A stretch of DNA of 35,425 nucleotides from the IMG/VR virus record IMGVR_UViG_3300001336_000003, positions 64,001 to 99,425 of that record. One strand, written 5' to 3'. A program made the translations under genes and the position numbers. A model generated the notes under the pieces. The model did not search any database, was not told the DNA's origin, and saw only the letters and a program-made list of their open reading frames with translations. Each line of letters begins with the position of its first letter. The stretch's first letter is position 1. Positions 12,837 through 35,131 of the stretch are shown in pieces. This stretch comes from a virus. Its lineage: Duplodnaviria; Heunggongvirae; Uroviricota; Caudoviricetes.

Positions 12837-13391
12837 TTAGCTTCTTAGAATAAAATTGTCCTTAGAAAAGAAGTTATAGAAACAATATTTCTTTTCAGTT
12901 GGGAAATCGTGCGGACATTGTTTTTCTTTTTTTCTTTCGGGATCTGTGAATGTCGGTGTTTCTTTCCAATCGAACCCATATACGGTCACGCTTTCAGGAT
13001 CGCATTTGCTTATATAATCTAAAGCCATCAAACCAGTTGTTGGGTTGTTGTGTTTTCCAGCTAGTTTTTTGAGTGGCGCGTAGTATTCGTCTGGATATAC
13101 AAAATCTACTAAAGCCTTATTGATTGCATTTCTACCTTGGTGCCCCATGTGCATAAGCTTTGCATTTGTTTTTCTGAAATGATTTTTATACTCAACGGTG
13201 TTCCAGAACATCCAAATGTCTGTTCTTTTGCCATGCGATTTCGCTGCATTTGTTTCTGTAAACAACATAGCCGCTTTATTCAGTCTAACAACAACGTCAT
13301 GGGAATCTATTTCTTCACCGTATTCTCTTTCAAATAAGTAAGTCGCGTTTCCTACTACCGCGACTGTTTTACCTTCAAACCAATGTTTCAT
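12837..13391 (-). CDS. GT29 (sialyltransferase-like) glycosyltransferase
   Basis: Sialylmotif L (VAVVGN..YLF....GEEIDSHDVVVRLN), S-like (PTTGLMALDYISKCDPESVTVYGFD) and VS-like (HDFPTE). Confidence 0.8.
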   Translation of the reverse strand: MKHWFEGKTVAVVGNATYLFEREYGEEIDSHDVVVRLNKAAMLFTETNAAKSHGKRTDIWMFWNTVEYKNHFRKTNAKLMHMGHQGRNAINKALVDFVYPDEYYAPLKKLAGKHNNPTTGLMALDYISKCDPESVTVYGFDWKETPTFTDPERKKEKQCPHDFPTEKKYCFYNFFSKDNFILRS

Positions 13392-13395
13392 ATCG

Positions 13396-14172
13396 TTAAT
13401 CTCTTAATGTAAAATTATTCTTATTGAGCAATGCTTTTCTTGCATACGCTTCTTCTAACGCAAAATTGTGCATACATCTTACGTCAAAACGGCACTTAAT
13501 ATCCTTATCAAATAAATTCAATTCTGAAAAGGTTGGTGTCTTTTTGAAGTCCATGCCATATATATCAACACTAGATGGTTCGCATTGTGACAACCATTCA
13601 AGAACAGTAATGCCTATACTTGGTCTTATGACTCTTCTTTCTTTTGTTTCTTTGATAATTTTGAAACCTCTTCTTGTATAGCGGGTTTCGTATGCTTCAA
13701 ATAAGCTTTGATTTCTCAAAAAAAGGTGTTGACTTCTTTTTTCATTGCTTTCTTGATATTTAGAAGCAGATGCCACTTTAACATTCAACGCTTCAAATTT
13801 GCTATTGTTGTATGTGAAATCGCAATGATCTAATGACGTTTTTCTATGGCCATTTATGACAGCTTGTATTTTGTAAATCCCATCATCATTGAAGAATGCT
13901 TCGCGCATTTTTTCATATTCTGGTTCATTAAGCGTTCTTTTAACAAATGCACCTATAGCCCAAAAAGCCCACACGTCCATTTTTTTGCCATGAGTCAAAG
14001 TGACGTTATTTTCGCAATATAACGGCGCGGGTTTATTAAATCTGATAACTATGTCATGACTGTCTATTTCCATACCATAGAGTTTGTCAAAAAGTGACAG
14101 TGAATTCCCGACCACCGCCACTGACTTGTTTTGAACTAATTTTTCAAAACTTACTTCTTTATGTGATACCAT
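13396..14172 (-). CDS. GT29 (sialyltransferase-like) glycosyltransferase, paralog of the adjacent gene
   Basis: VAVVGNSLSLF...GMEIDSHDIVIRFNKPAP; PSIGITVLEWLSQCEPSSVDIYGMD; HNFALE. Confidence 0.78.
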   Translation of the reverse strand: MVSHKEVSFEKLVQNKSVAVVGNSLSLFDKLYGMEIDSHDIVIRFNKPAPLYCENNVTLTHGKKMDVWAFWAIGAFVKRTLNEPEYEKMREAFFNDDGIYKIQAVINGHRKTSLDHCDFTYNNSKFEALNVKVASASKYQESNEKRSQHLFLRNQSLFEAYETRYTRRGFKIIKETKERRVIRPSIGITVLEWLSQCEPSSVDIYGMDFKKTPTFSELNLFDKDIKCRFDVRCMHNFALEEAYARKALLNKNNFTLRD

Positions 14173-14681
14173 ACCTTGTCTTCTTCCTGCGCGTAATCGT
14201 CACCAAAATTTTCTTTGATAGCCTTATCTACACCTTCCCAAAAAATGTCATGACCCATAATATATCCGCCAACTTTCACTTTCGGCCCCCATTTTTTAAT
14301 ATCTTCATTGCACCCTTCATACGAATGGTCTGCATCTATGAAAACAAAATCCAAGCTTTCGTCTTCTACCAAATCTGCGGCCTCGCTAGTTTTCATACGA
14401 AGTAGGGTTCCTCTTCCATCCACCTTCTTACAAAAATCTGTTATATCTTGGTAATAAGTTTCGTGATCCCATTCGTGTCCATTTTCACCGGGTGTCCATT
14501 TTTCGGGACCGTCATTATCATGTTGTGGTGCATAAAGATCAACGCCTATCAATTTTAGTTCAGGGACGTTTGTAAGAACATATTTGAATGTCCTTCCCCT
14601 CCAAACACCAAGTTCTGCACCCAATGTCCATCCATTTTCTTTAGCAAATTTTGTTATTACTTTTTTGCGCTCTTCAGCCAT
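14151..14681 (-). CDS. Class I SAM-dependent methyltransferase (Methyltransf_24-like)
   Basis: GAELGVWRG, LIGVDLY, LDFVFIDADHSYE, GGYIMGHD. Start moved to the ATG at 14681 (SD GGAG). Confidence 0.85.
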   Translation of the reverse strand: MAEERKKVITKFAKENGWTLGAELGVWRGRTFKYVLTNVPELKLIGVDLYAPQHDNDGPEKWTPGENGHEWDHETYYQDITDFCKKVDGRGTLLRMKTSEAADLVEDESLDFVFIDADHSYEGCNEDIKKWGPKVKVGGYIMGHDIFWEGVDKAIKENFGDDYAQEEDKVWYHIKK

Positions 14682-14682
14682 A

Positions 14683-15363
14683 TTATCTCCAATGCTTTTT
14701 GCACCACATGTTGTCGATTTGATGTGGATTTGGCTCCCCATGAAAAGCCGCTATTGATGTTTCTTTTTCGTGTAGCGGTTCTATATTTATCTGAAACCTA
14801 TTGCCTACTTTTTTAATATGTTTTTTGTCTACCATATCCAGCTTATAGCTCATTATCCAATTATTCGGCCAAAAAGAATAATCTTTTACTGTTTCTTGCA
14901 TCCAATCTTGATCGCCATCTAATCTTTTCATTATGCTTTCTGAGTTGTTAATGAATTCGTCATATTCGCGATTCATTGTATTGGTATCAAACCTAAAACA
15001 ACTACTGTTCATCCCGTCTTTGTTATTTTTACTAAATCCCCGCGATATGCAGAATTTGCTTGGTTCATATTCAAAAAACTTGTCGATATTGTTGAATATG
15101 ATAACATCCAAATCAATAAAAAGAACAGTCCCATCAAGACCCAAGTTGGGCGAAAAGAATGTTGGTTTATACCACCATCCACTCAAACCTTTAGTTTCTA
15201 GACCTATGACTTTGATGTGCGGGTTTAGCCCTTGTGCATTTTCAGTCATACAAATGAATTCGTGTTCCAAAGTTGTATGCCTTTGGGTCATACTGTAAAG
15301 TGTATTCACATAATCGGCAGAGTATTTGTCGCCATATTTTAAACAAGCTATGTAACGATTCAT
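14683..15363 (-). CDS. GT-A fold glycosyltransferase (DxD)
   Basis: CLKYGDKYSADYVNTL, GWWYK, VLFIDLDVII, GDQDW, FHGEPNPH: a common phage GT8-like family. Start probably at 15363. Confidence 0.75.
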   Translation of the reverse strand: MNRYIACLKYGDKYSADYVNTLYSMTQRHTTLEHEFICMTENAQGLNPHIKVIGLETKGLSGWWYKPTFFSPNLGLDGTVLFIDLDVIIFNNIDKFFEYEPSKFCISRGFSKNNKDGMNSSCFRFDTNTMNREYDEFINNSESIMKRLDGDQDWMQETVKDYSFWPNNWIMSYKLDMVDKKHIKKVGNRFQINIEPLHEKETSIAAFHGEPNPHQIDNMWCKKHWR

Positions 15364-16130
15364 TTTACCTTGCAAACCACTTCATGCTTTGCAAGCCCAT
15401 CTGCAAATTTTAAGTTCATTTCTCTAAATTGCTGCAAAGGATTTTGCTTGACCTCAATGAAGTTGCTTTTGTGCATTTCAATCATTCGCGAAACTGCCGT
15501 TCTGTTTCTTACATCGTATAAGTTTTCTTTGGGGAATTGAATGCCGAACAAACTAGTGACGCTAGTGAACTTGGAAGAATACCCAAACGGAATTACCTTC
15601 CTTCCACTTAACAACGACCAATAAATTCCATGATAAGAATTAGTGATAATTTTGTCACACATTTCCCATTTTCGAAGAAAGCTATCTTTTGATTCATCAT
15701 TCTTGGCCAATATGTATTTGTCTGCTAATTTTTCGTTTATGCTAGAACTGACCACTTGATTGGCGTTTGTGAAAATCAGTATCTTATCACCTTTCGGTTC
15801 AGATATAATTTCTTCGTTTAGACAACTTACGCATGGAAGAAACTTTTTCTTGTCTTCCAACAAATCCATATCGCGGCTTGTCCATTCAAGGAATGTGTTT
15901 TGTGTTTTTACTGGTATTTTTTTGCCCAAGTCTTTATCAGACTTTCCAGCCGCCCACACGATCATTTTATTGGCATTTGGCTTTCTAGCATGGTCTGGAA
16001 TATTCCATACGCCACCACCAATTATCGTGCGTTCTTTTTCTGATGATATGTCAAAATACACATCTGGTGTGCATAAAGCATCACCTATGTTGTATAACTT
16101 GGTGAGATCTTTCTTGATATAGTTTATCAT
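15360..16130 (-). CDS. Polysaccharide pyruvyl transferase-like protein
   Basis: NIGD at the N-terminus, IIGGGV, IVWAAG and IITNSYHGIYWS motifs. Confidence 0.55.
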   Translation of the reverse strand: MINYIKKDLTKLYNIGDALCTPDVYFDISSEKERTIIGGGVWNIPDHARKPNANKMIVWAAGKSDKDLGKKIPVKTQNTFLEWTSRDMDLLEDKKKFLPCVSCLNEEIISEPKGDKILIFTNANQVVSSSINEKLADKYILAKNDESKDSFLRKWEMCDKIITNSYHGIYWSLLSGRKVIPFGYSSKFTSVTSLFGIQFPKENLYDVRNRTAVSRMIEMHKSNFIEVKQNPLQQFREMNLKFADGLAKHEVVCKVK

Positions 16131-16170
16131 TACTACCACTTATATTGGGAATTCTGTTTAAGTATCCCTT

Positions 16171-16178
16171 TATTTATA
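16171..16178 (-). promoter_or_regulatory. T4-type late promoter TATAAATA driving the glycosylation cluster
   Basis: Exact consensus immediately after a terminator, about 40 nt upstream of the ATG at 16130. Confidence 0.8.
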
Positions 16179-16206
16179 AAAAAAGGGGGCTTCGGCCCCC
16201 TTTTTT
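16178..16206. terminator. Rho-independent terminator (symmetrical, potentially bidirectional)
   Basis: A7-GGGGGC-TTCG-GCCCCC-T6. Confidence 0.9.
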
Positions 16207-16221
16207 AGCTTTTACTTAATT

Positions 16222-19585: not shown

Positions 19586-19770
19586 ATTGTTATTACTCCT
19601 TTATTATGTGCAAAAAAGTGTGGTGTGAAACCATGGAACCCCGAACCTAAGTTGAGCTTTCTGCAAATATCACGTGCTTCTTTTTCCGACCTTTCCAAAA
19701 CAATTTCAGTTTCGCTTTCCTTTTCGAAAACATTGAAACCCTTGTCTTTTTTAACTACCGAATAACTCAT
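19582..19770 (-). CDS. Small conserved phage hypothetical protein
   Basis: ATGA overlaps at both ends; LNLGSGFHGFTPHFF motif. Confidence 0.7.
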   Translation of the reverse strand: MSYSVVKKDKGFNVFEKESETEIVLERSEKEARDICRKLNLGSGFHGFTPHFFAHNKGVITI

Positions 19771-20348
19771 TGGAATCCTCCTACATTAAAAAGCTTGTTC
19801 TTTCCATCTTTTTTATTCAATACGGGATTGAATTCGCCATCACCAAATACAGATTTTTGTTCATCTGTATTTTGATTTTCGTTAGTCACATTTTTCTGTG
19901 CTTTCTTTTCTGCATTATACAACCGCATTCTTGCTTTATCCATGCCAACTACAAATTTTCGATATGTGTTCAAATCACCCCAACGATTTTTCAACTGCTT
20001 TATCATTATTTGACCAATAGCTTCTAAATCTTCGGAAGTAATCAATGCAAAAATTGCATCGGCTGTGTGGGTAATACCCATGCTGTTTTTTGTGAGTATC
20101 CCATTACAGTAAAAAAGTTGATCGCCAGTGACAGAAATATCTACAGTTTCCAAAACGCCCACATCTTCTATTAATATGATTTCATCATTAAAATCGATAC
20201 TCGCAGCATCGCTCTTTAATTGTTTTTCTTCCTTTTCTTTTTCAATACTTATAAGTAGGTCAGTAAGATCAAATAAATCCATGTCTTTTGCTAAACCATT
20301 ACTTATCATGTGTTGGGCTTTCAAAAAACAAAAATCTTCTACATTCAT
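19767..20348 (-). CDS. 41: Split-intein C-fragment (aa 1-88; 20348-20085) fused to the gp41 helicase C-extein (from Ser at 20084)
   Basis: Intein blocks F and G (VLETVDISVTGDQLFYCNGILTKN/S), followed by SMGITHTADAIFAL...MIKQLKNRWGD (gp41 C-terminal motifs). SD GGAG; ATGA overlap with the endonuclease stop. Confidence 0.92.
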   Translation of the reverse strand: MNVEDFCFLKAQHMISNGLAKDMDLFDLTDLLISIEKEKEEKQLKSDAASIDFNDEIILIEDVGVLETVDISVTGDQLFYCNGILTKNSMGITHTADAIFALITSEDLEAIGQIMIKQLKNRWGDLNTYRKFVVGMDKARMRLYNAEKKAQKNVTNENQNTDEQKSVFGDGEFNPVLNKKDGKNKLFNVGGFQ

Positions 20349-21412
20349 AACATATCTCCAACTTCTTTTAATATTTGTTTTCTAACTAAAGAAAAATCGT
20401 CTGTATCCCACACTGTCTTATAACGAAATCCTTTTTTAATGGCAACATTTTTCTTTTTGTAATCTTTTGCTATGATAATATCTTCTGATAAGAAACCTTT
20501 ATAATCACCTAAAGGGTTCGAATGCCAAAATGAGCCATTATATTCTATGATATATTTAATACTTTTTATTGTGAAATCGTATGCAAACGTATCACCTTCA
20601 TCACCAATAAAAAATTCACGCGAACCCGCGATACCCCATTGTATATCTTCTTTTTGCAGCCCCAATCGTCTGATGTTTTTATAAAGCGGTATAAAAAATT
20701 TCAAAGATTCTTTAGATGTTCTTGGCAACATTGGTGTGTTTCTACCGTATTTTTCAAACCACGTGAGCTTACGGTTTTTGATATATTCGCTATACTTTTC
20801 TATTGCAATGTCTTCATCGCCATAACGCATAAAAAACCCATCAATCGAATTTCTAGTTTTTTCTAAATGTAATCTTAGTAACTCATTTGCCTCTTTCTCG
20901 TCACTTCCGCGTTTTATGTAATATTCTATGCACATCGGATTATTTTCTCTATATGAATATCCAGATTTTTTCAATTTTTGGTGCATATTCTTACTTTCTA
21001 TGCTTTTTTTCTTTTTCCTATTTTTTACTACTTTTTCTGCTTCCTCTAAAGATATGGACTTTATATTAGAAATGTATTCAGCAGAATATTTGTTTTGTTT
21101 AGAGCGATCTATTTTTGGTCTACTTAAAAGTTTTTCTTTGTATTCGTCCGCTCTTGTTTTTCCGTATCTTATTTCCAATGCTTCATATGAAGAGTTGTGC
21201 AAGCTACAATATTTTTCGTATTTTTCAAAGAAAAAATTGTCGTTATTAACCAATATGTCTTTAAACCATTGCAATCTTTTTAAAGCTACATTAAAAGGTA
21301 ATGAAAAAAGGTCATACTTTATCATCGCAGCAAAAAAGTATGACCTTTTATCTATGCTTATCATTTCTAACAAATTTTTAACTGGTTTTCTTTCGGTTAA
21401 ATTCTTTGTCAT
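20345..21412 (-). mobile_element. Free-standing Vsr-like/DUF559-type homing endonuclease between the split-intein halves
   Basis: C-terminal YDF...IIEYNGSFWH...DYKK...KGFRYKTVWD; repeated YG helical DNA-binding segments. Best start is the ATG at 21412 (SD AGGAG). Confidence 0.8.
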
Positions 21413-22826
21413 TTGTATCTCCTGTGTGTGTATTACATTCACCGTTGATACCATTTATATAAAAGCCTTTTTCTAAGCCACCCGATACAGAAATTCTTTT
21501 CACCTCACCCGTTGGCGATTTAGCGGGAAATACGTGATTTTTACTTACAATGATTTCTTTCCCTGATTTAGTCGTAATTTTTACACATTCTTTAGATTTT
21601 GGATGATGGACCATTGTGACAATTTTTGTTCCATCATTAGATTTTATTATATCCCCTGGTGAAAGGTCAGCAATTCTCATAACACCTTTGGTTTTTTCAG
21701 TAACTTTTTCGTCAACGAAAATACATTCGGATGTGTTAGTCAAATCAACGTCACTGTTATTATATCCATCGCGGTTTAACTGCGAACTGGAAACGATAGG
21801 AACGTTAAATTCTACTGCCAAACCCCTTACTTCTTCTGCGATTGACTTTACCAAAGTGTAAGAATTGGCAGCAGAATTGCCTTTTAGTCTTGATGAAGCG
21901 CAGATGTTCAAATAGTCCAGATATATAACGTCTGGTTTGAAGTTCTTCTTCATTCTAAGTTCATTAAGAAGGTGCCTAAAATGTCCCACATGTGCAGAGC
22001 TTGTAGGATATTCTTTGATGATTAGCTTGCCTGGTGTTTTGTCCTTTAGTCTGGACATTCTTTTTTCGTATGTGCTTAAAGGCAAATCTGCAACTTCGTC
22101 TATCGTTATTTCCATCATGTTAGCATCAATGCGGCGTCCAACTTCTTCTTCACTCAATTCTGCGGTGATATAAAGAACGTTTTTGCCGAATAGAAGATGT
22201 GCAGCAGCCATATGACACTTGACAATACTTTTACCAGAACCAGTTGCACCCAAAAACAATGTTAAAGACTTTTTAGGCAAGCCGCCCTTTGTAATCATAT
22301 TCATTATGTCAATATCAAATGGTATGCGTTCTTCTTTTCTATGGTAGTATTCATATCTGGAATTGAAATCTTCCAAGAAGTCATGACCAATATGTGTATC
22401 AAAACTAATCGCCAAAGACTTAGAAAGAAGTTCAGGTATAGCGCCTTTATCATATTCTTTGTCTTGTCCATCATAGATCATAATCGATTTTCTGATGGAA
22501 TTGTATAGGTCTTTGTCTTGACAAAACTTTTCAGTTTGATCTAACAACCATTCGGGGTCTGTTTTGGAATCCGTTTTCAGTTCGCCAATTTTTTCAACGA
22601 CTTCTTTGAATGTGTTTTCGTTGAGATCTTTTCTATCTTCTAAGGTTATTTTCAGGGCCTCAATGGAAGGGAGGCCCTGATATTCGCTTACATATTCTGA
22701 AAAAGAGTTGAATATCTTTTTGATTGCATTGTCGTCAAAATATTCTTCTTTGATGTATGGGAAAACCTTTCTGTAGTATTCTTCATTATGTATCAAATTC
22801 GCAAGTATGGTGTTTTCCATTGACAT
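21378..22826 (-). CDS. 41: gp41 replicative helicase N-extein (aa 1-367) fused to a split-intein N-fragment (Cys368 at 21725, 115 aa)
   Basis: Walker A GATGSGKS, IIKEYPT, YLDYLNI, SSQLNR; then CIFVDEKV (block A) and IIVSKNHVF (block B). Confidence 0.95.
   Translation of the reverse strand: MSMENTILANLIHNEEYYRKVFPYIKEEYFDDNAIKKIFNSFSEYVSEYQGLPSIEALKITLEDRKDLNENTFKEVVEKIGELKTDSKTDPEWLLDQTEKFCQDKDLYNSIRKSIMIYDGQDKEYDKGAIPELLSKSLAISFDTHIGHDFLEDFNSRYEYYHRKEERIPFDIDIMNMITKGGLPKKSLTLFLGATGSGKSIVKCHMAAAHLLFGKNVLYITAELSEEEVGRRIDANMMEITIDEVADLPLSTYEKRMSRLKDKTPGKLIIKEYPTSSAHVGHFRHLLNELRMKKNFKPDVIYLDYLNICASSRLKGNSAANSYTLVKSIAEEVRGLAVEFNVPIVSSSQLNRDGYNNSDVDLTNTSECIFVDEKVTEKTKGVMRIADLSPGDIIKSNDGTKIVTMVHHPKSKECVKITTKSGKEIIVSKNHVFPAKSPTGEVKRISVSGGLEKGFYINGINGECNTHTGDTNDKEFNRKKTS
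21452..21459 (-). promoter_or_regulatory. Possible late promoter (TATAAATG) for the homing endonuclease, embedded in the IntN coding sequence
   Basis: 7/8 match to TATAAATA, 40 nt upstream of the ATG at 21412. Confidence 0.4.
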
Positions 22827-22830: not shown

Positions 22831-23901
22831 TTAATCCTCTTCTTCGTAGTCCTCCTCTACATAGGCGCTAGCACTAACTGCACCCATTGCACCGAGTTTG
22901 AACTTCTTTTCCACAAAATTTTTGAATATATCATCTTTAATAAGATTGACAAAGAATTCATCATCGTTTTCTATGTCTTTTGCGCGTCTTTTACCATCGG
23001 CTATTTCGCCAGTTGTCATATCGACTGTGCTATACCAACCTTGGTTCACTTTGATAATGTGACCAGATTCCACAGCCAAATCAAATAGTGATGACCACTT
23101 TTGAATACCACTGTCATAAAGAACCGTGAAAGGTAGCTTTGCCTTTTCTTTGACAAATCTTGACTTTTCAATGTTGATGGTAAATTTATACCCCGAAAGT
23201 TCTGTCCCTTCTTTTTCTTGTGCTTTACCAATCACAAAAATTTGGTTTGCTGCATATGTTACAGCAGTGCCACCAGGGATTATAGTTTTCGGGAACATGC
23301 CTATTTCTTGATATACATGATTGATTACTATACACGGCAAATCCTTCATTGTCAAGTGCGGAGTTATGATTCTAAGCAAAGAACGGATAGCTTTTGCTCT
23401 TGACATGTCAGCAACAGATTTTTCATTTTCTGCATCTTCAACTTCTTTTTTCGAAGCAAGATTACCCAAGGAATCTAGCATGATGAAAACCTTATCACCA
23501 CGTTTGACTTCATCAAGTCTTTTGACAATATCAAATTTCAATTGTTCTACATGTTCAACTGGTATGTGCAATACACGTTCTGGATCAATACCATTGCTTT
23601 CCAAGTAATCTGGTGTTATACCAAATTCTGAATCGTAGAGTAGTGCTATTGCATCTGGATATTTGTTGAAGTAAGCTTTCATACAATATAGACCTAGTAA
23701 TGTCTTGAAGCTTTTGCTAAGGCCAGCGAATATTGTTAAACCAGGTATCAGACCGCCATCAAGACTACCACTAAACGCGATATTCAAAATGGGAAGATCT
23801 GTAGGGATTACATCTTTGGCGTTGAAAAAAGAAGATTCGCTAAGAACCGCCGCTCCTTTGATGGAGCCAGATTTCTGCATACGTTCTAGTAACGTGCTCA
23901 T
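22831..23901 (-). CDS. uvsX: UvsX RecA-like recombinase
   Basis: NIAFSGSLDGG, AGLSKSFKT, YDSEFG, DSLGNLASKKE, INHVYQE, KSRFVKEK; directly upstream of gene 41, as in T4. Confidence 0.95.
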   Translation of the reverse strand: MSTLLERMQKSGSIKGAAVLSESSFFNAKDVIPTDLPILNIAFSGSLDGGLIPGLTIFAGLSKSFKTLLGLYCMKAYFNKYPDAIALLYDSEFGITPDYLESNGIDPERVLHIPVEHVEQLKFDIVKRLDEVKRGDKVFIMLDSLGNLASKKEVEDAENEKSVADMSRAKAIRSLLRIITPHLTMKDLPCIVINHVYQEIGMFPKTIIPGGTAVTYAANQIFVIGKAQEKEGTELSGYKFTINIEKSRFVKEKAKLPFTVLYDSGIQKWSSLFDLAVESGHIIKVNQGWYSTVDMTTGEIADGKRRAKDIENDDEFFVNLIKDDIFKNFVEKKFKLGAMGAVSASAYVEEDYEEED

Positions 23902-24275: not shown

Positions 24276-25229
24276 TTAGCCTTTTTTAGCAAGAGACTTG
24301 AAGTATTCCATATCGTCGTCATCTTCATCGCTTTCGAATGAAGAAATTGCTATCTTTTCTTCTTTAGGCGTCTGTTCTTTAGCAGAAGCGGCAAACTTGG
24401 AAATGTCAATTTCTTCATCTTCATCGTGTAGCGCATTTTGTTTTGCGCCATTTCTAGAACCCATATCTGTTAGGCCAAGAACGCGATGGAACCTTTCCTT
24501 CAAAGCATCATATGATTTGAAGTTTTTAGGATCGATGATTTCTTGCAACGAATAGATGTTGGATAGCTTTTCTGCATATTCATCATCATTTTCGAACAAT
24601 GGCGCTGGTTCTGCAAAATCAGACTTGTCGTAGTTTGGATATCCTTCGACTTTTCTGATTTTCAGACGGAAGTTTGCGCCGTTATCCCAAAGATCAAATG
24701 GGTCAATCGCAGTTTCGCCTTCGAATTCAGGATTTGGTGCATCTTTCAGCTTGTCGAAAATTTTCTTGCCATATCTAAACAAGAACACCTTACCTTCATT
24801 TTCAGGATTAGAAGGGTCAGAAACCACATAAACGTTTGAAATAAAGTTCAGCTTACGCTTTTGAATTCTAGCCTGTGTGCGTTCTGGCGACTTGTCATCT
24901 TCTGTAGAATTCCACAACTTGTTGTTAAATTCATTAACAGGGTCGTCTTGCTTTATTGTAGAAAGGCAGTTTTCAATATACCATTGTCCAGTAGGGCCTT
25001 TAAATCCGTGTGTGTAAAGACGGACAAAAGGAACATCTTCACCATCTGGTGCGGGTAGGAATCTGATAACAGCATATCCGTTACCCGCGCTATCAAGCGT
25101 AGGCTTCCAGTATTTATTTTCATCGGGATTGGAATAGCCTTTCGATGAAACTTCTTCTAGTTGCTTGTTAAGTTTCTCGAAAGAATTAGAACGATTTTTC
25201 TTCAGTTCTTTAAAATTAAATGTAGCCAT
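24276..25229 (-). CDS. 32: gp32 single-stranded DNA-binding protein
   Basis: YWKPTLDSAGNGYAVIRFLPA, HGFKGPTGQWYIENC, EGKVFLFRYGKKIFDK, YPNYDKSDF; acidic tail. Confidence 0.97.
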   Translation of the reverse strand: MATFNFKELKKNRSNSFEKLNKQLEEVSSKGYSNPDENKYWKPTLDSAGNGYAVIRFLPAPDGEDVPFVRLYTHGFKGPTGQWYIENCLSTIKQDDPVNEFNNKLWNSTEDDKSPERTQARIQKRKLNFISNVYVVSDPSNPENEGKVFLFRYGKKIFDKLKDAPNPEFEGETAIDPFDLWDNGANFRLKIRKVEGYPNYDKSDFAEPAPLFENDDEYAEKLSNIYSLQEIIDPKNFKSYDALKERFHRVLGLTDMGSRNGAKQNALHDEDEEIDISKFAASAKEQTPKEEKIAISSFESDEDDDDMEYFKSLAKKG

Positions 25230-27187: not shown

Positions 27188-27850
27188 TCAAATTTCCACA
27201 AACAAAACCTTGTTAACGTAACGATCTTTATCTTCTTTGCTTATCCCCATGGAAATTATAGAATTGTGCAGATGTGGGTTTAATTTTTGATTGTAGCAAT
27301 ATTTGTTATGTATGTCAACGTAATTTTTGTCACTTCGTTGTTCATTTTCCAAATTGTTGACATAATATTCTATAAGCCCATAAGTCGTGTTGCACAATTT
27401 TTCAATTTCAGAATCGCGAACATTGCCAGCCGCAATCATGGAATCTGAAAATATTTCTTTCGCCCATTCTGGTAGTTCTCTAGGCTTATTCCAATCAACT
27501 TCTGAAACAACATCGCGAAACGTAGTCATGTATGGATGATGATTACTGATAGGTGAAAAATCAAAAAAGCTCCCTGTTATCTTGTTTTGGCCAGATACAA
27601 CATCAAATCCCAATATAGGGGTATCCATATCAACATGGGGGAAAATGTTTATGTGAAGCAACCACGTTTTTCTACTTTCGCGATTGTCTATCGTTTTCAA
27701 GTGGCATTTTCGTATTTTATCGGAACGCCAATAGGTGTCATTCCACCCATCGAAATCCACTTTTTCATCAAGTGGAAATCTTTCAAATTTGGAATCGAAT
27801 AGGTTTGTTATCCTATCGGTAAGTTCAATCAGTGGTTCCCATATGGCCAA
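27188..27850 (-). CDS. pcyX: Ferredoxin-dependent bilin reductase, PcyX-like
   Basis: WLLHINIFP...PILGFDVVSGQNKITGSFFDFSP, RELPEWAKEIFS, YCYNQKLNPH. The His/Asp pair is of the PcyA/PcyX type. Likely TTG start at 27850 after GGAGGA. Confidence 0.82.
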   Translation of the reverse strand: MAIWEPLIELTDRITNLFDSKFERFPLDEKVDFDGWNDTYWRSDKIRKCHLKTIDNRESRKTWLLHINIFPHVDMDTPILGFDVVSGQNKITGSFFDFSPISNHHPYMTTFRDVVSEVDWNKPRELPEWAKEIFSDSMIAAGNVRDSEIEKLCNTTYGLIEYYVNNLENEQRSDKNYVDIHNKYCYNQKLNPHLHNSIISMGISKEDKDRYVNKVLFVEI

Positions 27851-28391
27851 CAGATTCCTCCAATTCTTCCAAAAATTCAGTAACCATATCAAAACAAGTC
27901 TTAGCTTCATCGGCCAAACCATCATGTAGTTTTTCGCGCATTTTACTTTTTAGAACTTCAATGTCGCCATCAAATTCGTATCGCGTTGCCGAACCAAACA
28001 CGAATCTTTTTAAAATCTGCCCGCCAGACAAATCACCCATGTGATGAACATATATGTGTGCTAAAAGCTTATCTTTATCATCTTCAAGACGCATAACATA
28101 ATCATAGTAATGCATAGCAGATTTCAAAGGTTTTGGCGTTTTGAAATTGTGCATTTTTTCAAGTTCTTGAAGATCCTTCATCATGTTAACCGAACGCTTG
28201 ATGCCTTCAATTCCTTCTAGGACACCAGCTTTTTCAGACCATTCTTCTAGAATAGAATACATCAAAAACATGTTGGATAAGTATATGTAATACTGTATAG
28301 GCGTCATGTTTTTCTTCAACATCCTATTGACAAAAGCAGTCTTTTCTGCTCGCGTGTGATGATGCTTAGTCAATTCTTTCAAATTGCTCAT
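27825..28391 (-). CDS. Heme oxygenase (HemO/Ho1-like)
   Basis: LKELTKHHHTRAE (proximal His), LLAHIYVHHMGDLSGGQIL, LADEAKTCF. Confidence 0.93.
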   Translation of the reverse strand: MSNLKELTKHHHTRAEKTAFVNRMLKKNMTPIQYYIYLSNMFLMYSILEEWSEKAGVLEGIEGIKRSVNMMKDLQELEKMHNFKTPKPLKSAMHYYDYVMRLEDDKDKLLAHIYVHHMGDLSGGQILKRFVFGSATRYEFDGDIEVLKSKMREKLHDGLADEAKTCFDMVTEFLEELEESVGHMGTTD

Positions 28392-28890: not shown

Positions 28891-29671
28891 CTTGTTTTAC
28901 CGCACTCATTCTTTCTTCATCTGTGAATGTGGAAGAAGCATATGCAAGTGTAGAATCCATGCCAGAAGCATAAGCGGTTCTCATGCGTGAAGTCATAGCA
29001 GATGCGGAACGCATGGTGCTTCCCATAGAAGCGGTGTCATACTGCATTGTATTTTGCTGCCCAAACCCAAGGCTTGCACCTGCGGCAAATGCGTCAATGT
29101 TAGCACCAAGGAACATGAATCCCCAATTTTTACCTTCCGCTTTCTCGACCATTTGCTTGACGTTTGTATTGTCAAAAGTTTTGGAAGCGTTTTCATGACC
29201 GTCTGTCAAGATAGTGATGATAATAGAATCATTTGTTGTGCCTTGTGGATTGTAGGTTTTTTCGTCAATGCTACTGACTTCTTCAATCGAAACGCGATTG
29301 AACACACAATTCACCGAATGTCCATCGAATTTGTAAAGCGAAACAAAAGTAGGGATACTAGTGTTTTTAGCATCTTCGCGTTGCATTTGTAGATATTCGT
29401 TATATCCAGAAATAGTAGCTTCCCTACATGATTGCATGGAACCAGAATCGTCTAGAACGAAAATGATATGTGAAGTTTTTTTTCCAGCACGTTTAGGCTT
29501 GAATGCTTCTGCTAGATTTGGTTTTTGTAATGTATTGTTTACAGAATAAACTGGTGGGACTGGTGTAATTGGACTTGGGAATGAACTTGGCGACATGTTG
29601 ACATATCCGCCTGACTGAATTCCGATACCATTTGTTACTACTTGAGCTTGTGAATTAATACGTCTTATCAT
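28880..29671 (-). CDS. von Willebrand factor type A (vWA) domain protein, apparently with an internal in-frame deletion
   Basis: FVLDDSGSM (DxSxS), GTT, ILTDGHENAS, WGFMFLGAN. Confidence 0.85.
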   Translation of the reverse strand: MIRRINSQAQVVTNGIGIQSGGYVNMSPSSFPSPITPVPPVYSVNNTLQKPNLAEAFKPKRAGKKTSHIIFVLDDSGSMQSCREATISGYNEYLQMQREDAKNTSIPTFVSLYKFDGHSVNCVFNRVSIEEVSSIDEKTYNPQGTTNDSIIITILTDGHENASKTFDNTNVKQMVEKAEGKNWGFMFLGANIDAFAAGASLGFGQQNTMQYDTASMGSTMRSASAMTSRMRTAYASGMDSTLAYASSTFTDEERMSAVKQDDK

Positions 29672-29702
29672 TTATAGACCTTTCTATGTTGTGTGATGTG
29701 TA

Positions 29703-30007
29703 AGTGGGTCCGTTATTTTATACGGTGGAACCCATACCGCAAGAGATTAAGCCGCTAGGCGAACCTCTGGTTTTGCATTTGTGTTTGCATTTCTTAGTTT
29801 CGTCGCGTTAACCCAGCTTAGATCGGGGTAGCTCCATCCTGCCTATTCCGCCTGTCGATCCCATTTCACCCCCAGCAAAGATACACTTACCGCCTCGCCT
29901 AATCCCGCAGTCCGAAACAAGTTGTCCTGCTACTTAAAGTGTATCTGTGGTGGAGGTGTCGGCTTCGAAGCCGAGTCCAGAACGTTTTCAGTGAACTTCA
30001 TCACTAC
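29703..30007 (-). ncRNA. ssrA: Circularly permuted (two-piece) tmRNA; tag peptide (A)ANTNAKPEVRLAA at 29788-29747
   Basis: T-arm and acceptor end (CTCGGCTTCGAAGCCGACACCTCCACCA, ending at 29948) come first. A 74-nt intervening segment follows, then the 5' end GGGGGTG at 29873, which pairs 7/7 with CACCTCC including the G3-U70 Ala identity pair. The tag ORF ends LAA-stop and is followed by a pseudoknot-like region. Outer ends are approximate. Confidence 0.92.
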
Positions 30008-30012
30008 AATCT

Positions 30013-30020
30013 TATTTATA
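30013..30020 (-). promoter_or_regulatory. T4-type late promoter TATAAATA driving the tmRNA
   Basis: Exact consensus between a terminator hairpin and the tmRNA acceptor piece. Confidence 0.8.
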
Positions 30021-30021
30021 T

Positions 30022-30050
30022 AGAAATGGGAGGCTAACCTTGGCCTCCCA
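30022..30050 (-). terminator. Terminator after the OMP gene
   Basis: TGGGAGGC / GCCTCCCA 8-bp stem followed by TTTCT on the minus strand. Confidence 0.65.
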
Positions 30051-31047: not shown

Positions 31048-31076
31048 TGTATAACAGTTATGGAATGAATTGTCAA
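31048..31076 (-). promoter_or_regulatory. Candidate sigma70-type promoter for the Alt-tail mini-gene
   Basis: TTGACA (31076-31071, overlapping the alt stop), 17-nt spacer ending in TGt, then TATACA (31053-31048). Confidence 0.55.
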
Positions 31077-33208
31077 TAGGTAATTTTGATTTTACCCTTA
31101 GCGATTTTATCTTCCAAATCTTTCATATCATCAAGCGACAACAATTCTTCATCCCAAACAGATTCAGATTTCTTAGTTTTCTTGTCGTCTTGCTTCTTAT
31201 TTTCGAAAAGCATTTTAAGATCGTCTGCACCTTTTTTGTATGCCTCATAGAAGCTTTCAGCGCCGTTGCCTGTATATACACCCACGACATATGGCTTTTT
31301 TAACGTCCCTTGCGTTGTGTGATATACTTCGGTGAATCTTATTCTACTAAAAGGTGGTAGCATGATTTCTTTTTCCCCAGGGACGCCAGAAAAATTCAAA
31401 ACTGGAATGCATCTTGTTCCTTTTGGGAGGAATATCTTCATTCTCATAGAATCGGGCTTTTCACCCATAGATACCTGTGTGCTCAAAGAAGTGGATAGCC
31501 AAGCAGGATCTACAAAAACATCACCAGGTTCAAATTTACCTTGGCCTGGGACTTTGGCATTTCGATAAACCCATACATCATCTTCCATCTCCACAGCATA
31601 TTTACTATAGAATTTGAACATGGCGTCTGAATTGCTATCTAAGTAAAAATCGCCCGTTTTTATAGAAGATAGTGATTTTCTAAGATTTGGGTTTATTATT
31701 TTATATCCAGTACCAGTGTATGATCTAAATGAACGAACCGCTTTTAATTCTTCACGTTCTTCTTCACTTAGACTTGAAGAATCATCTATGCTTTTTCCTG
31801 CCCATTTTTCGAATATGGTAGCAAATTGATTATAGCTTTTATAGCTTTTCACAACATTTATTTTTTCGGTGATATTTTCTTGGGTGTTTCCAAATCCTAG
31901 ACCGTTATCCCATTTTGTAGCGTTATCACCAGAAAAAGCTTCTTTTTTTGCTTGGACTGCAAACGGCAATTCCAAAACTTTGGCGGAATCTAGTGTAGTT
32001 TTATACATATCAGAAGCTTTTGCGGTGTCTATGTTTTTGACTGCTATGAAAGCAGCACGTGCGCTTTTAGCATCTTCTGGTGTCATGTCTATAACATCAT
32101 TAAGAACCTGTTCCCACATTTTCTTATTTTTCACGCCAATCTTCATCAAGCCGTTATCATTTGTAAGGCCCATATTCACCATGATCTTTCTCATAGTTAT
32201 TGATGAATCGTATTTGTATATGGACTTGAAAACACTTTTAAGACTACTGACCAAATACTTATCATCCATCTTATTACCTTCTTTGCCCAACTTATTCAAT
32301 GCGCTATTAAGACTCCAAGACATTCTTGATTTAATCAAACCAGCAAGCGGTATGTTGTCACTATGAATATCGTCACCTTGTTTGTAAGTCAAAGAAATTT
32401 TCGCCAAAGGTGGCTCTTCTACTTTGTCTCCAACAACTTCATCGCTTTTCAGAAGATCCACTACGTTTGAACCGCCTTTACTTTTCACAGCTTTGTTCGA
32501 TATGTCGTCAATGAGTTTCACGTCTTGACTATCAATTTCGTTACCCAAATCTAACTTCTTGAAAGCATAACGCTTGCTTGGAGTCGTGCTCACAATTTCT
32601 TTTTGCTTTCTATACGGCACAGTGATTTTTTCGATGTTTTCACTTGTTATGATATCTTCGATTTCCATGTTTGTTGGGTCAAACTCGAAGTGCTTTTTGA
32701 ACACCGCAGTCTTGAATATCATTTCAGGGCTTACGCTTTTCTTCGTGACAAAAATGTAGTTTCGAGCACCATCTGATATTTTTTTGACAGGGACGACACG
32801 GAATGTCTGTATGTAGGTCTTTTTCAAGATTCTGGTCAAAAGACTTTGATATCTTTCCGAACCAGTTTTGCCAGGAATATCTATGATTATTCCGTTCATC
32901 CTATTGCGAATGAACGGATACGAAGCTTCCATGAATTTTAGGAATGTTGACAGGACAGGGCGAATGTCAGAAGGCGTCTTGAAAGACCACGTTCTTTTTT
33001 TGACACTTACAATACGGTATAGTTCTATCATGTAAACTTTATCGTAAGTCGTTTCCACTAAAGACATGCCATAGTCAGAACCATTGATTTTTGCAGTTGC
33101 ATAAATTTGTTTAGGAAGAATGGTATCTTCCGTCATTTCAAATTCTACAGCCGTATCTAAAGATTCAAAAAAATAGTCTTGCTCTCTATAATCAACGAAA
33201 GACTTCAT
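31073..33208 (-). CDS. alt: Alt-like ADP-ribosyltransferase (C-terminal VIP2-type domain)
   Basis: R-S-E catalytic motifs VYRN, LSTSL and GEKEIML; YTGTGYKIINPNLR; CTS-like start MKSFVDY; 711 aa. Confidence 0.8.
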   Translation of the reverse strand: MKSFVDYREQDYFFESLDTAVEFEMTEDTILPKQIYATAKINGSDYGMSLVETTYDKVYMIELYRIVSVKKRTWSFKTPSDIRPVLSTFLKFMEASYPFIRNRMNGIIIDIPGKTGSERYQSLLTRILKKTYIQTFRVVPVKKISDGARNYIFVTKKSVSPEMIFKTAVFKKHFEFDPTNMEIEDIITSENIEKITVPYRKQKEIVSTTPSKRYAFKKLDLGNEIDSQDVKLIDDISNKAVKSKGGSNVVDLLKSDEVVGDKVEEPPLAKISLTYKQGDDIHSDNIPLAGLIKSRMSWSLNSALNKLGKEGNKMDDKYLVSSLKSVFKSIYKYDSSITMRKIMVNMGLTNDNGLMKIGVKNKKMWEQVLNDVIDMTPEDAKSARAAFIAVKNIDTAKASDMYKTTLDSAKVLELPFAVQAKKEAFSGDNATKWDNGLGFGNTQENITEKINVVKSYKSYNQFATIFEKWAGKSIDDSSSLSEEEREELKAVRSFRSYTGTGYKIINPNLRKSLSSIKTGDFYLDSNSDAMFKFYSKYAVEMEDDVWVYRNAKVPGQGKFEPGDVFVDPAWLSTSLSTQVSMGEKPDSMRMKIFLPKGTRCIPVLNFSGVPGEKEIMLPPFSRIRFTEVYHTTQGTLKKPYVVGVYTGNGAESFYEAYKKGADDLKMLFENKKQDDKKTKKSESVWDEELLSLDDMKDLEDKIAKGKIKITY

Positions 33209-33233
33209 GTAATTCCCCTGTGACGTATATCCA

Positions 33234-33926
33234 TCACTTATTTATCTGGTTCCACATTTCCAAATCTTCTGGCGTATTAATTTCAATACCATCGAAGTCT
33301 ACCTCAACAACTGATATGGAAACGCCATTCTGTATCCATCTAAGTTGTTCAAGTTTTTCAATCTGTTCTTCTGGATACACCTTCAATTTCCCATAATTTT
33401 TCAAAGCACCTTTTGTGTATCCATATATACCCAAATGATGTGAACCGTATGCCAAAGAAGAACGGCAGAACCAATGCGCTAAAGAATCTGTGTGTATCAT
33501 TTTTACAGCATTTTGGTCTTGTTGTTTTTCAGGCGTCATTTTAGTATATGCGGTCACGATTCCACCACTAACATAATCATAGCCATATCTATCAAGCCAT
33601 GACGCTATTTTTTCTATAATTTCTGGTGTGATATCTGGCATGTCACCTTGGACATTTATGAACTTGGTATAGTTAAATTTGTCGATAACTTCACCACATC
33701 GGCTAGTGCCATTTTCATGATTTTCGCTTGTTATTATAGAATTGGGAACCGCACTTGCTATTCTATCATCATCAGTTAAAACGTATGTGTCTAATCCAGT
33801 TGACGCGCAAATATCATAAACGCGGCGTATAAGTGGTTTGCCGCCAACGTCTGATAGCATTTTTGCGGGGAAACGTGTGCTAGCGTATCTTGCTGGAATC
33901 AGAATGGCTATGTCTTTTGTATTCAT
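33234..33926 (-). CDS. kdsB: CMP-Kdo synthetase (3-deoxy-manno-octulosonate cytidylyltransferase)
   Basis: IPARYASTRFPAK, NVQGDMP, HLGIYGY, EKLEQLRW, EINTPED. Start moved to 33926. Confidence 0.93.
   Translation of the reverse strand: MNTKDIAILIPARYASTRFPAKMLSDVGGKPLIRRVYDICASTGLDTYVLTDDDRIASAVPNSIITSENHENGTSRCGEVIDKFNYTKFINVQGDMPDITPEIIEKIASWLDRYGYDYVSGGIVTAYTKMTPEKQQDQNAVKMIHTDSLAHWFCRSSLAYGSHHLGIYGYTKGALKNYGKLKVYPEEQIEKLEQLRWIQNGVSISVVEVDFDGIEINTPEDLEMWNQINK
33239..33246 (-). promoter_or_regulatory. Late promoter variant GATAAATA upstream of alt
   Basis: 7/8 match, 31 nt upstream of the alt ATG. Confidence 0.5.
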
Positions 33927-34686
33927 AATTATACTCCACAATATTTTCAATCGCTAATTCGAAATCGTATAGTTTTAGCATGTTTGGCCCATCACTTGGT
34001 GCATTATCTGGATCAGGATGAACTTCTAAGAAAAAATTCGATACACCTAATGCAGAAGCTGCACGACATAAAGGAATAACATCAGCGCGATTGCCGCCAC
34101 TACTATCACCTTTTCCACCTGGTTTTTGAACAGAATGTGTAACATCAAATATAATAGGATCATCATAATTAGCCAACATATAATTAAGGCCAGTAAAGTC
34201 AACAACGAGTGTATTGTAACCAAAGCTAGTCCCCCGTTCTGTTATCCAAACTTCTTTAGCATCCATAGTCTTTGACAAAATACCTTTCACATCCCATGGT
34301 GCCAAAAATTGACCCTTTTTGATATTTACTATTCTGCCAGTCTTACATGCAGCAACAATCAAATCAGTCTGGCGGCATAGAAAGGCGGGTATCTGCAAAA
34401 CATCCACACAACCAGAATAGTTTACCAGTTCGACTTGTTCAACGTCATGAACATCTGTCAAGATTCTAACGCCCAATTTATCTTTCAACACATGGAAATC
34501 GCCCATTGTAGGAATGACGCCCATTCCACGTTTACCTGTAATGCTTGTTCTATTGGCTTTGTCGTAACTTGCTTTAAAATAATAGTCCACGCCATATTTG
34601 GCGCAGACTGCTTTACAATGGCTTGCTATTTCTAAACTTTGTTCCAAACTTTCGTGTTGGCAAGGCCCTGCTATGATTCTTATCAT
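33880..34686 (-). CDS. kdsA: KDO-8-phosphate synthase
   Basis: IAGPCQHES, FKASYDKANRTS, QIPAFLCRQTDL, NIKKGQFLAPW, TERGTSFGY, DVTHSVQ, EVHPDPDNAPSDG. Start moved to 34686. Confidence 0.97.
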   Translation of the reverse strand: MIRIIAGPCQHESLEQSLEIASHCKAVCAKYGVDYYFKASYDKANRTSITGKRGMGVIPTMGDFHVLKDKLGVRILTDVHDVEQVELVNYSGCVDVLQIPAFLCRQTDLIVAACKTGRIVNIKKGQFLAPWDVKGILSKTMDAKEVWITERGTSFGYNTLVVDFTGLNYMLANYDDPIIFDVTHSVQKPGGKGDSSGGNRADVIPLCRAASALGVSNFFLEVHPDPDNAPSDGPNMLKLYDFELAIENIVEYNYEYKRHSHSDSSKIR

Positions 34687-34775
34687 TCCAACACCTTCAC
34701 TATCCATCTTGGTTTTAGTTGTCCAAAGTATCTGGCATATACGACTTTGCCAACCCTTTCATATATTAGCTTCAT
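34683..34775 (-). CDS. 30-aa protein MKLIYERVGKVVYARYFGQLKPRWIVKVLE (below the ORF-track cutoff)
   Basis: ATGA overlap with the cupin stop and with the kdsA start; fills the gap exactly. Confidence 0.7.
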   Translation of the reverse strand: MKLIYERVGKVVYARYFGQLKPRWIVKVLE

Positions 34776-35131
34776 GTCTTGGAACCTATCGTTCTTCTCA
34801 CGATATCATCACCATCTAACTGTGGTGCCCAATATAATTCAAATGCCACCCCATCTTCAAGCCCTTCGAATTGGTGGATCTTCCCTGGCTTGACTTGGGT
34901 GAATTGGCCAGCTTCCAAAATAGTTTCATCAACCAATCCTTTTTGATCTTCATCTTGCCACACGCGAATCAACATTTTTCCTGATTCTACAAAAAATCCG
35001 TTAAATTTGAAACGGTGTTCATGCTCGGAACATTTATAGCCTGCTTTATATTCAATTCTATGAAATTCCAGAACGCCATTTGCATGTATCAATTCTGTCG
35101 AACCCCATATCTTCCCTGCCCGTATCCCCAT
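34772..35131 (-). CDS. Cupin-fold protein (sugar isomerase-like)
   Basis: KIWG, CSEHEHRFKFNGFFVESG, VKPGKIHQF; start at 35131 with SD GGAG. Confidence 0.75.
   Translation of the reverse strand: MGIRAGKIWGSTELIHANGVLEFHRIEYKAGYKCSEHEHRFKFNGFFVESGKMLIRVWQDEDQKGLVDETILEAGQFTQVKPGKIHQFEGLEDGVAFELYWAPQLDGDDIVRRTIGSKT

Follow-up and report, generated by a model that had tools for sequence, protein, structure and literature searches.

A putative late glycan cassette with two compact GT29-like transferases, and a separate CMP-Kdo module, in an uncultured marine T4-type phage

The window examined here, 35,425 nucleotides (nt) long, is the final 35.4 kb of a 99.4-kb IMG/VR viral contig (IMGVR_UViG_3300001336_000003; CheckV completeness, 47%). 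All of its substantial genes lie on the minus strand, and the homology of these genes identifies a T4-type phage. [quoted passage not shown] A preliminary description of this DNA, made from the sequence alone, had read the five genes as a unit of a pyruvyltransferase-like protein, a glycosyltransferase (GT) with a DxD motif, an S-adenosylmethionine (SAM)-dependent methyltransferase, and two members of family GT29. Pfam, PHROG, and the translations bear out this unit. Its genes and upstream signals are as follows.

16179-16206, no strand: symmetrical G+C-rich hairpin with an A-run and a T-run, resembling a bidirectional intrinsic terminator, that closes the upstream unit; terminator scan, 12 pairs, 6 GC
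16171-16178 (-): TATAAATA, a T4-type late-promoter motif that abuts the hairpin, 32 nt upstream of the first cassette gene
15360-16130 (-): pyruvyltransferase-like protein, 256 amino acids (aa) from an ATG (GTG at 16139 in the list of open reading frames [ORFs]); PS_pyruv_trans, 4.1e-5
14683-15363 (-): GT-A glycosyltransferase with the DxD motif FIDLDVIIF, 226 aa from an ATG; PHROG 1962 (glycosyltransferase), 1.2e-25
14151-14741 (-): SAM-dependent methyltransferase (Methyltransf_24); Pfam, 3e-16, 60.6 bits against a cut-off of 26.3
13396-14172 (-): GT29a, a compact soluble GT29-like transferase of 258 aa; Pfam GT29, 1.5e-10, profile positions 55-263
12837-13391 (-): GT29b, a smaller GT29-like transferase of 184 aa and a paralogue of GT29a; Pfam GT29, 1.3e-13, motif L region

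The terminator said to insulate the cassette is present as the G+C-rich hairpin with its flanking runs, and the late promoter said to start it has a plausible counterpart in TATAAATA, a motif that is conserved in relatives. By count, TATAAATA is at chance level within the window (four seen against 2.35 expected). ATAAATA, counted in the intergenic DNA of the whole contig, is fivefold enriched (18 seen against 3.3 expected), and within the window it also lies upstream of the gene for an Alt-like protein and of the gene for an 829-aa protein that follows the cassette. The NATAAATA motif and the hairpin are kept upstream of the cassette in four diverged relatives (L003, L004, L006, and L174), which have GAATAAATA, CTATAAATA, or GATAAATA beside the hairpin, with the order of motif and hairpin differing among them. 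Because of this intergenic enrichment and this conservation, we infer, on good grounds, that the cassette is transcribed late.

Next, we consider the tailoring genes. PS_pyruv_trans (PF04230) matches the first cassette protein at 24.1 bits, under the Pfam cut-off of 25.3, and the same domain is precomputed on many homologues of this protein. Its structure model (predicted local distance difference test [pLDDT], 93.8) has a GT-B-like fold, for which the VIA structure search returned Z scores of 10.2 to 6x1l and 8.6 to the yeast pyruvyltransferase Pvg1p; Foldseek gave no match to the model at an E value of <=0.001. Since many GT-B glycosyltransferases have VIA Z scores similar to that of Pvg1p, which marks a generic GT-B signal, “pyruvyltransferase-like” is the furthest label that is supported. 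The DxD protein matches Pfam Nucleotid_trans at 0.003, below the cut-off, and its relatives are a GT of Pelagibacter phage Mosig (34% identity), P1 PmgQ, and P7 HdmD. The methyltransferase gene may start at an internal ATG, which would give 176 aa. Its orthologues (53-87% identity) adjoin GT29 genes in many viral contigs, and it has a partial match to a PHROG named DNA methyltransferase. A hydrophobic segment was looked for in all five cassette proteins and found in none, and all five are predicted to be soluble and cytoplasmic.

Both GT29 calls proved sound, in that the sialylmotifs are kept in both proteins and GT29a has the fold. The PF00777 scores are 51.4 bits for GT29b and 41.4 bits for GT29a against a cut-off of 23, and a scan of the phage’s own genome for GT29 returned the same two places. 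We used the patterns VAVVGN...G.EID.HD.V.R.N for motif L, PS/T.G...YG.D for motif S, and H....E for motif VS. In GT29a, the residues of all three motifs are invariant across 29 homologues. In GT29b, Pfam matched motif L alone, but an orthologue alignment shows motifs L, S, and VS (H161, E166) all present, and the same columns are invariant in 17 mixed GT29a/b sequences. We take these invariant columns to be sialylmotifs L, S, and VS from knowledge of the family, together with a hidden Markov model alignment to ST3Gal-I. The position of the motif-L cysteine, which in eukaryotic sialyltransferases takes part in a conserved disulfide with motif S, is K or S in the GT29a homologues. Neither protein has a type II membrane anchor like that of the eukaryotic enzymes or any other hydrophobic segment (maximum KD19, 0.44 and 0.89), and GT29b is the most conserved member of the cassette, with 60-69% identity in relatives.

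A structure model was made for GT29a, of the two GT29-like proteins (pLDDT, 90.8). In Foldseek, its first 29 PDB matches were all GT29 enzymes, with ST6GalNAc2, ST3Gal1, and ST8Sia3 at the top (probability, 1.0; E values down to 5e-6; TM score, 0.45-0.54). Plant GT29s were among the structural matches, and the bacterial GT42 sialyltransferases Cst-I/CstII appeared from rank 30. GT29 is the sialyltransferase family of animals. The phage proteins share with the eukaryotic enzymes ST3Gal-I (2wnb), ST6GalNAc2 (6apl), and ST8SiaIII (5bo8) sialylmotifs L, S, and VS and a GT-A variant fold that ranked at the top. However, at 184-258 aa they are soluble, have neither a transmembrane stem nor the L- and S-motif cysteines, and are only about 15% identical, and their donor is probably other than sialic acid.

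The preliminary description had placed kdsA and kdsB near the far end of the window. These calls hold, and a cupin gene that it did not mention makes the locus a triad.

34772-35131 (-): cupin of 119 aa, the first gene of the triad, conserved beside KdsA
33880-34707 (-): KdsA, Kdo-8-phosphate synthase; DAHP_synth_1, 1e-54, and NCBIfam equivalogs
33234-33950 (-): KdsB-like CMP-Kdo synthetase, 230-238 aa by start choice, overlapping KdsA; CTP_transf_3, 4e-26

KdsA scores above two equivalog cut-offs (NF003543, 334.7 bits against 242; TIGR01362, 319.8 bits against 314), with DAHP synthase models far lower. Its neighbor is KdsB-like, in that its five best NCBIfam matches are all KdsB, below their cut-offs (best, 184 bits against 193), with PseF at 17.5 bits. 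Relatives of this KdsA are spread over at least 588 viral contigs, in most cases accompanied by the cupin and KdsB; the best 80 are 67-74% identical. The cupin lies <=2 kb from KdsA in 58 of 76 viral loci and, at 58-89% identity, is more conserved than KdsA itself. Its family consists of virus-only Atlas clusters, and some members match MannoseP_isomer or Lyx_isomer. This cupin might be a sugar or sugar-phosphate isomerase or a missing Kdo-pathway enzyme, such as an arabinose-5-phosphate isomerase, and might in that way replace one step of the CMP-Kdo pathway.

No genes for synthesis of CMP-N-acetylneuraminic acid (Neu5Ac) had been seen in the window, and this extends to the whole 99-kb contig, where the KdsB-like gene is the only CTP_transf_3 gene. 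NeuB, a second CTP_transf_3, WaaA (WaaA-N), and KpsC/S were looked for on the contig, and none was found. Therefore, CMP-Kdo is the only CMP-sugar that the sequenced part could make, and, with WaaA and KpsC/S absent from it, the GT29-like proteins are the only phage-encoded candidate users of CMP-Kdo.

The cassette is syntenic in JGI metagenome contigs of 15 to 275 kb, with protein identities of 40-87%. In L003/L175, L004/L176, L006, L087, L174, and G027, it sits downstream of gp32-UvsX-gp41 and upstream of an 829-aa-type gene. Gene content differs among them: in L174, the two upstream genes are different ones and Methyltransf_24 is missing; G027 has three GT29-like genes plus a GT8, a DegT aminotransferase, a GFO/IDH/MocA oxidoreductase, and a hexapeptide acetyltransferase; and a larger group of contigs has one GT29 and the methyltransferase. 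The constant core is GT29b and its paralogue, with the 829-aa-type gene, which is putatively of a polyvalent type (see below), immediately after. This combination of a fixed place and changing sugar chemistry is familiar from exposed-glycan loci.

Co-occurrence of the two loci across related phages, which the preliminary description had named as the check on its reading, proved asymmetric: most cassette phages have KdsA, whereas most KdsA phages are without GT29 and one cassette phage is without a syntenic KdsA. Six cassette contigs cover the upstream site at which the triad lies, and five of them (the window, L175, L174, G027, and G031) have cupin-KdsA(-KdsB) there. An unrelated viral contig, G006, has a GT29-like gene among two KdsA, two CTP_transf_3, methyltransferases, and a cupin, and the window cupin is 47% identical to the one in this Kdo island (G006/L056). 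Distant GT29-like genes lie near NeuB in G003, G004, G015, G016, and G069, the first four of which have a CMP-synthetase too. Together, the G006 island and the NeuB contexts indicate that phage GT29-like genes generally travel with CMP-ulosonic-acid genes. In a maximum-likelihood tree, the clade that holds both window GT29s includes 11 KdsA-context rows out of 12, and every NeuB-context row lies outside it. Among GenBank phages, nucleotide searches with the cassette and the kdsA region gave no matches, nor did tblastn with GT29a; tblastn with GT29b gave three weak matches only, one of them in the 462-kb phage LR756500, 7 kb from that phage’s KdsA.

The island on the unrelated contig (L056:3253-14415; IMGVR_UViG_3300005805_009709) holds, beside its GT29-like gene and cupin, two KdsA and two CTP_transf_3 genes, one of the latter with an in-frame TGA. 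Methyltransferases, FkbM among them, are encoded as well, as are a radical SAM/SPASM protein and a class III aminotransferase, and the island may make a modified, e.g., aminated, Kdo-type sugar.

Several observations weigh against a tight link between the GT29 pair and Kdo. A 275-kb cassette contig is without cupin-KdsA-KdsB at the syntenic site. GT29-like genes are on about 130 viral contigs against at least 588 for KdsA; among KdsA-positive contigs of at least 37 kb, GT29-like genes are found in 3 of 26; and KdsA-positive genomes of 357 kb (100% complete) and 330 kb (93%) have no GT29. The closest gp32 relatives have neither the triad nor the cassette, and a gp32-anchored sample of 72 loci, about 8 of them with enough flank, yielded double-negative contigs only. 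A 2-by-2 table of KdsA and GT29 gives an odds ratio of 4.4 (one-sided P = 0.22), a crude and descriptive figure from biased sampling. The list of closest KdsA homologues and the GT29 lists share no contig, which suggested that KdsA is spread over a far larger clade than the cassette, as the at least 588 contigs bear out. KdsA was also not found on 40 short GT29-positive contigs, an absence that is uninformative because these contigs are only 3-49% complete. The branch that unites the GT29 clade is weakly supported (85/77), its members come from related syntenic phages, and the clustering may reflect the shared ancestry of those phages alone. In addition, one Arabidopsis GT29 is annotated as a galactosyltransferase, so membership in GT29 is no strict proof of a CMP-sugar donor. 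On the side of donor supply, neither KdsD nor KdsC (SIS and Hydrolase_3 matches) was found on the 99-kb contig, itself 47% complete. The cassette occurs mostly within KdsA-positive phages, and KdsA occurs mostly without the cassette. This pattern fits a cassette that gains from a boosted CMP-Kdo pool and equally fits two independent modules within a clade rich in KdsA. Given these caveats, the Kdo link is plausible, and co-occurrence does not make it obligatory.

The interpretation that we prefer is that the late, cytoplasmic cassette builds a Kdo-type glycan from CMP-Kdo, for which we give a rough probability of 0.45. It keeps from the preliminary description the gene calls and the late motif and gives up the head-gene neighborhood. 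In this mechanism, the five genes at 12837-16139 would form a late-transcribed cassette for building and tailoring a glycan in the cytoplasm. The compact GT29-like proteins would be inverting transferases for a CMP-activated 2-keto-3-deoxy acid sugar, and it is about an even bet that in this phage lineage the sugar is Kdo. The host would make the CMP-Kdo pool, and the phage’s cupin-KdsA-KdsB triad would boost it. The DxD GT-A enzyme would add a neutral sugar, and the methyltransferase and the pyruvyltransferase-like enzyme would cap the product last, in an order of steps that we infer.

For the acceptor, our tentative choice is an intermediate of a host envelope glycoconjugate at the inner membrane face (lipopolysaccharide [LPS] core, O-chain, or capsule), with virion or injected phage proteins in second place and somewhat unlikely. 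A surface so remodeled, and the lysis debris, would no longer bind progeny or competitor phages. In support of a host glycan, GT8-GT29 fusions exist in several metagenomic proteins and one complete 33-kb temperate phage, and the G027 variant combines GT8 with amino-sugar genes. GT8 is an LPS-core-type family, and its fusion or adjacency to GT29, once in a temperate phage, speaks for host envelope glycans no less than for virions. A Rhizobium GT29 gene adjoins a PS_pyruv_trans gene, and methyl and pyruvyl groups are typical polysaccharide decorations. Against a tie to an envelope pathway, the cassette encodes no flippase, ligase, lipid-carrier enzyme, or oligosaccharyltransferase.

The temperate phage just mentioned (G014/L058:9245-10450; IMGVR_UViG_3300033463_000600; 33 kb, with direct terminal repeats) is a complete small genome that ends with the fusion gene. 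It has a CI-like S24 repressor; a C5 DNA methylase fragment and an HD-domain gene come before the fusion gene, which looks like a glycosyltransferase of the lysogenic-conversion type. In Rhizobium wenxiniae (L332:9034-11056; JBCEBP010000013.1), the GT29 gene is divergent from the adjoining PS_pyruv_trans gene, the same pairing of families as in the cassette. By BLASTP, this Rhizobium PS_pyruv_trans protein has no detectable similarity to the phage pyruvyltransferase-like protein.

Downstream of the GT29 pair lies the 829-aa gene with a motif of its own.

12818-12825 (-): CATAAATA, a motif resembling a late promoter, 33 nt ahead of the 829-aa gene
10296-12785 (-): multidomain protein of 829 aa, with a basic Lys/Arg-rich N-terminus, DUF5824, and a ParB-like DGHHR motif

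The cassette had been said to lead directly into head-protein genes. This did not hold: for the downstream genes, PHROG, Pfam, and tblastn gave DUF5824, ParB-like, DarB-like, or unknown assignments and matched no canonical head family, which counts against the virion proteins that the preliminary description favored as the target. The sole “head protein” PHROG match is weak and confined to the final 54 residues of a 144-aa protein encoded 7 kb away. The 829-aa protein is related to hypothetical proteins in phages of the phiM12 type, to a protein of HTVC008M called “cytidyltransferase,” and to a region of Erwinia phage PEp14 that resembles DarB. Its orthologues (L004:11252-13852 and L257:2225-4894) have a CTP_transf_like domain at the start (28.9 bits, cut-off 21) and also DUF5824; in this phage, a basic segment replaces the CTP_transf_like domain. 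We therefore rejected the product both as a head protein, for want of head-family homology, and as a functional cytidylyltransferase, for the domain swap. A gene of this type directly follows the GT29 pair in all relatives, and its products look like polyvalent-type proteins, which, as a conjecture, may well be packaged and injected. The C-terminal 120 aa of the 829-aa protein form a separate gene in relatives.

Other features of the window bear on the phage type and the host.

31073-33208 (-): Alt-like ADP-ribosyltransferase, by homology
29747-30008 (-): permuted (two-piece) transfer-messenger RNA (tmRNA) gene (ARAGORN, 29656-30039); Rfam tmRNA_permuted, 95 bits against a gathering score of 47
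24276-25229: gp32, by homology
22831-23901: UvsX, by homology

Further T4-type genes, also called by homology, are gp59, an endolysin, a spanin, and a split gp41 helicase. Among cultured phages, UvsX is closest (54% identity) to that of phiM12-group Sinorhizobium phages and of Synechococcus phage BUCT-ZZ01. The phage tmRNA (ARAGORN tag peptide, ANTNAKPEVRLAA) is a clue to the host, since the permuted form typifies alphaproteobacteria and cyanobacteria. The closest cellular KdsA proteins are from Rickettsiales, Caulobacteraceae, and Rhodobacterales metagenome-assembled genomes (<=56% identity), and there are relatives in Pelagibacter and Methylophilales phages. Judged by the tmRNA, the cellular KdsA, and these phage relatives, the host is probably a marine alphaproteobacterium.

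The gp41 helicase is encoded as two genes at 19767-22826(-) with an endonuclease-like ORF at 20345-21454 between them, a split by an endonuclease and an intein; in the relative L176, UvsX is also split, with a Hint-domain match. Within the 3' end of KdsB, a GATAAATA motif at 33239-33246(-) precedes the Alt-like gene by 31 nt and fits late expression of a packaged Alt-type protein, and a TATAAATA motif lies within the tmRNA gene at 30013-30020. The window also has a bilin-reductase-like gene at 27188-27925(-) (PHROG “ferredoxin oxidoreductase”). Genes of this sort are already known as auxiliary genes of marine phages, and in two relatives (L174:6343-7471 and L175:6040-7243) a heme oxygenase and Fe_bilin_red pair separates the KdsA triad from gp59.

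With the same cassette and donor, the acceptors could instead be late phage proteins (capsid, tail, fiber, or the neighboring packaged polyvalent protein), so that the glycan would serve as a virion shield or mimic, an alternative that we hold to be possible but somewhat unlikely. The late-promoter motif is of the kind that serves structural genes in T4-type phages, the enzymes are all soluble and come with no lipid-carrier or export function, the GT29 pair is directly upstream of the polyvalent-type gene in every relative, and the island’s content varies among relatives, as expected of an exposed glycan. The DxD enzyme is homologous to P1 PmgQ, which is named a putative morphogenetic protein; however, that name is presumably based on promoter type only. 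Virion glycosylation by phage GTs is accepted for mycobacteriophages, where Freeman et al. reportedly demonstrated it in 2023, but we know of no glycosylated T4-like virion. Capsid glycosylation has been inferred from two phage GT genes (PMC11256854). Here, no canonical head or tail gene adjoins the cassette, and the GT8 fusions and neighbors, with their temperate-phage member, point to LPS-type acceptors. The fullest version of this idea, in which the GT29-like pair are true noncanonical Kdo transferases, the cupin is a new arabinose-5-phosphate isomerase or other Kdo-pathway enzyme, and a methylated or pyruvylated Kdo cap is put on the phage’s own virion or injected proteins, seems to us distinctly improbable.

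The two loci could also be independent, with the triad a general auxiliary module that sustains the host LPS and outer membrane and the GT29s using a host CMP-nonulosonic acid (Neu5Ac, legionaminic, or pseudaminic). This is compatible with the spread of the KdsA triad over at least 588 viral contigs, most of them without GT29, with the cassette phage that has no KdsA at the syntenic site, with the other phage GT29-like genes beside NeuB, and with the mostly alphaproteobacterial distribution of bacterial GT29-like proteins (PMC5811610), to which clade the host likely belongs. We nevertheless judge it unlikely: the contig is without a NeuB or NeuA-type gene, such genes accompany no window-clade GT29 of known context, cupin-KdsA is kept in five of six syntenic cassette phages, and a GT29-like gene is embedded in the KdsA/KdsB/cupin island of G006. 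Far less probable still is decoration of phage DNA, a hypermodification analogous to the glucosylated hydroxymethylcytosine of T4. The cassette is near the replication genes gp32, UvsX, gp41, and gp59; the protein encoded downstream combines a ParB-like motif with a basic N-terminus; the methyltransferase partly matches the PHROG named DNA methyltransferase; and in G014, a C5 DNA methylase fragment and an HD-domain gene precede the fusion. However, the phage’s ThyA homologue scores as a genuine thymidylate synthase (308 bits, cut-off 108) and has DHFR as its neighbor, which indicates ordinary dTMP synthesis with no sign of a hydroxymethylase and makes DNA modification unlikely. Late control would be unlike that of the T4 glucosyltransferases, which are expressed early; pyruvyl and methyl tailoring is typical of polysaccharides; and to our knowledge no GT29-fold enzyme acts on DNA.

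Our preferred reading, a late Kdo-type glycan cassette, has a precedent in plants. The Arabidopsis GT29 RCKT1 is genetically required for Kdo on rhamnogalacturonan II (RG-II) and is a putative CMP-beta-Kdo transferase (PMC11288761). Its resemblance to the phage proteins is that a GT29 member is inferred to transfer Kdo in an organism with CMP-Kdo synthesis and without sialic acid; unlike them, it resides in the Golgi membrane, has pectin as its acceptor, and owes its assigned activity to genetics only, and the putative phage enzymes are far smaller. Plant GT29s are thought to transfer Kdo or Dha (3-deoxy-D-lyxo-2-heptulosaric acid) and have resisted biochemical assay (PMC11288761). In bacteria, GT29-like proteins with sialylmotifs have been described from marine alpha- and gammaproteobacteria, mostly alphaproteobacteria, in a report that does not mention phages (Petit et al. 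2018, PMC5811610). These are prokaryotic and have sialylmotifs like the phage’s, but they are longer (about 350 aa). The GT29-like protein of R. wenxiniae (P0064) aligns over the whole domain. The known Kdo transferases WaaA (GT30), KpsC/KpsS (GT107), and WbbB (GT99) would have the donor CMP-beta-Kdo in common with the phage pair, but they belong to other folds and families, and none was found on the contig. GT29 and WaaA are inverting, and KpsC/S and WbbB are retaining (in part after PMC9587256). Like WaaA and unlike KpsC/S and WbbB, the GT29-like proteins would therefore give alpha-Kdo linkages.

Among phages, the large T4-like cyanophages P-SSM2, S-SCSM1, and S-SCSM2R have cell-wall and LPS gene sets with kdsA/kdsB (PMC12801897, 2025), and environmental viral genomes with KdsA have been reported (PMC5332604, 2017). 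The KdsA of S-SCSM2R is 42% identical to that of the window. The cyanophages resemble this phage as lytic T4-like marine phages with Kdo-pathway and glycosyltransferase genes, which are read as host-surface modification; however, GT29-type transferases, a cupin partner, or a late-promoter cassette are not described in these reports. Our literature search found no paper on phage GT29 enzymes or on a phage GT29-Kdo link. We regard the cassette as a variant of the known phage glycan and LPS auxiliary islands.

Taken together, the two loci matter in different ways. The KdsA-KdsB-cupin triad, on at least 588 viral contigs, is one of the more widespread phage auxiliary modules, and its cupin is uncharacterized. 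The cassette is a glycan island of conserved position and variable content, apparently expressed late, and the marine T4-like phages that carry it are an abundant group with probable alphaproteobacterial hosts. Whether it remodels the surface of the dying cell or coats the virion bears on receptor masking, superinfection, and particle recognition. The cassette is most useful as a manageable case in which to study whether the GT29 fold can transfer Kdo: compact, soluble phage GT29s, in a contig whose sole CMP-sugar pathway leads to CMP-Kdo, would be convenient proteins with which to ask if that fold uses CMP-Kdo. If it does, the GT29 pair would be miniature, soluble kin, expressible in prokaryotes, of the unassayable Kdo transferase of plant RG-II.

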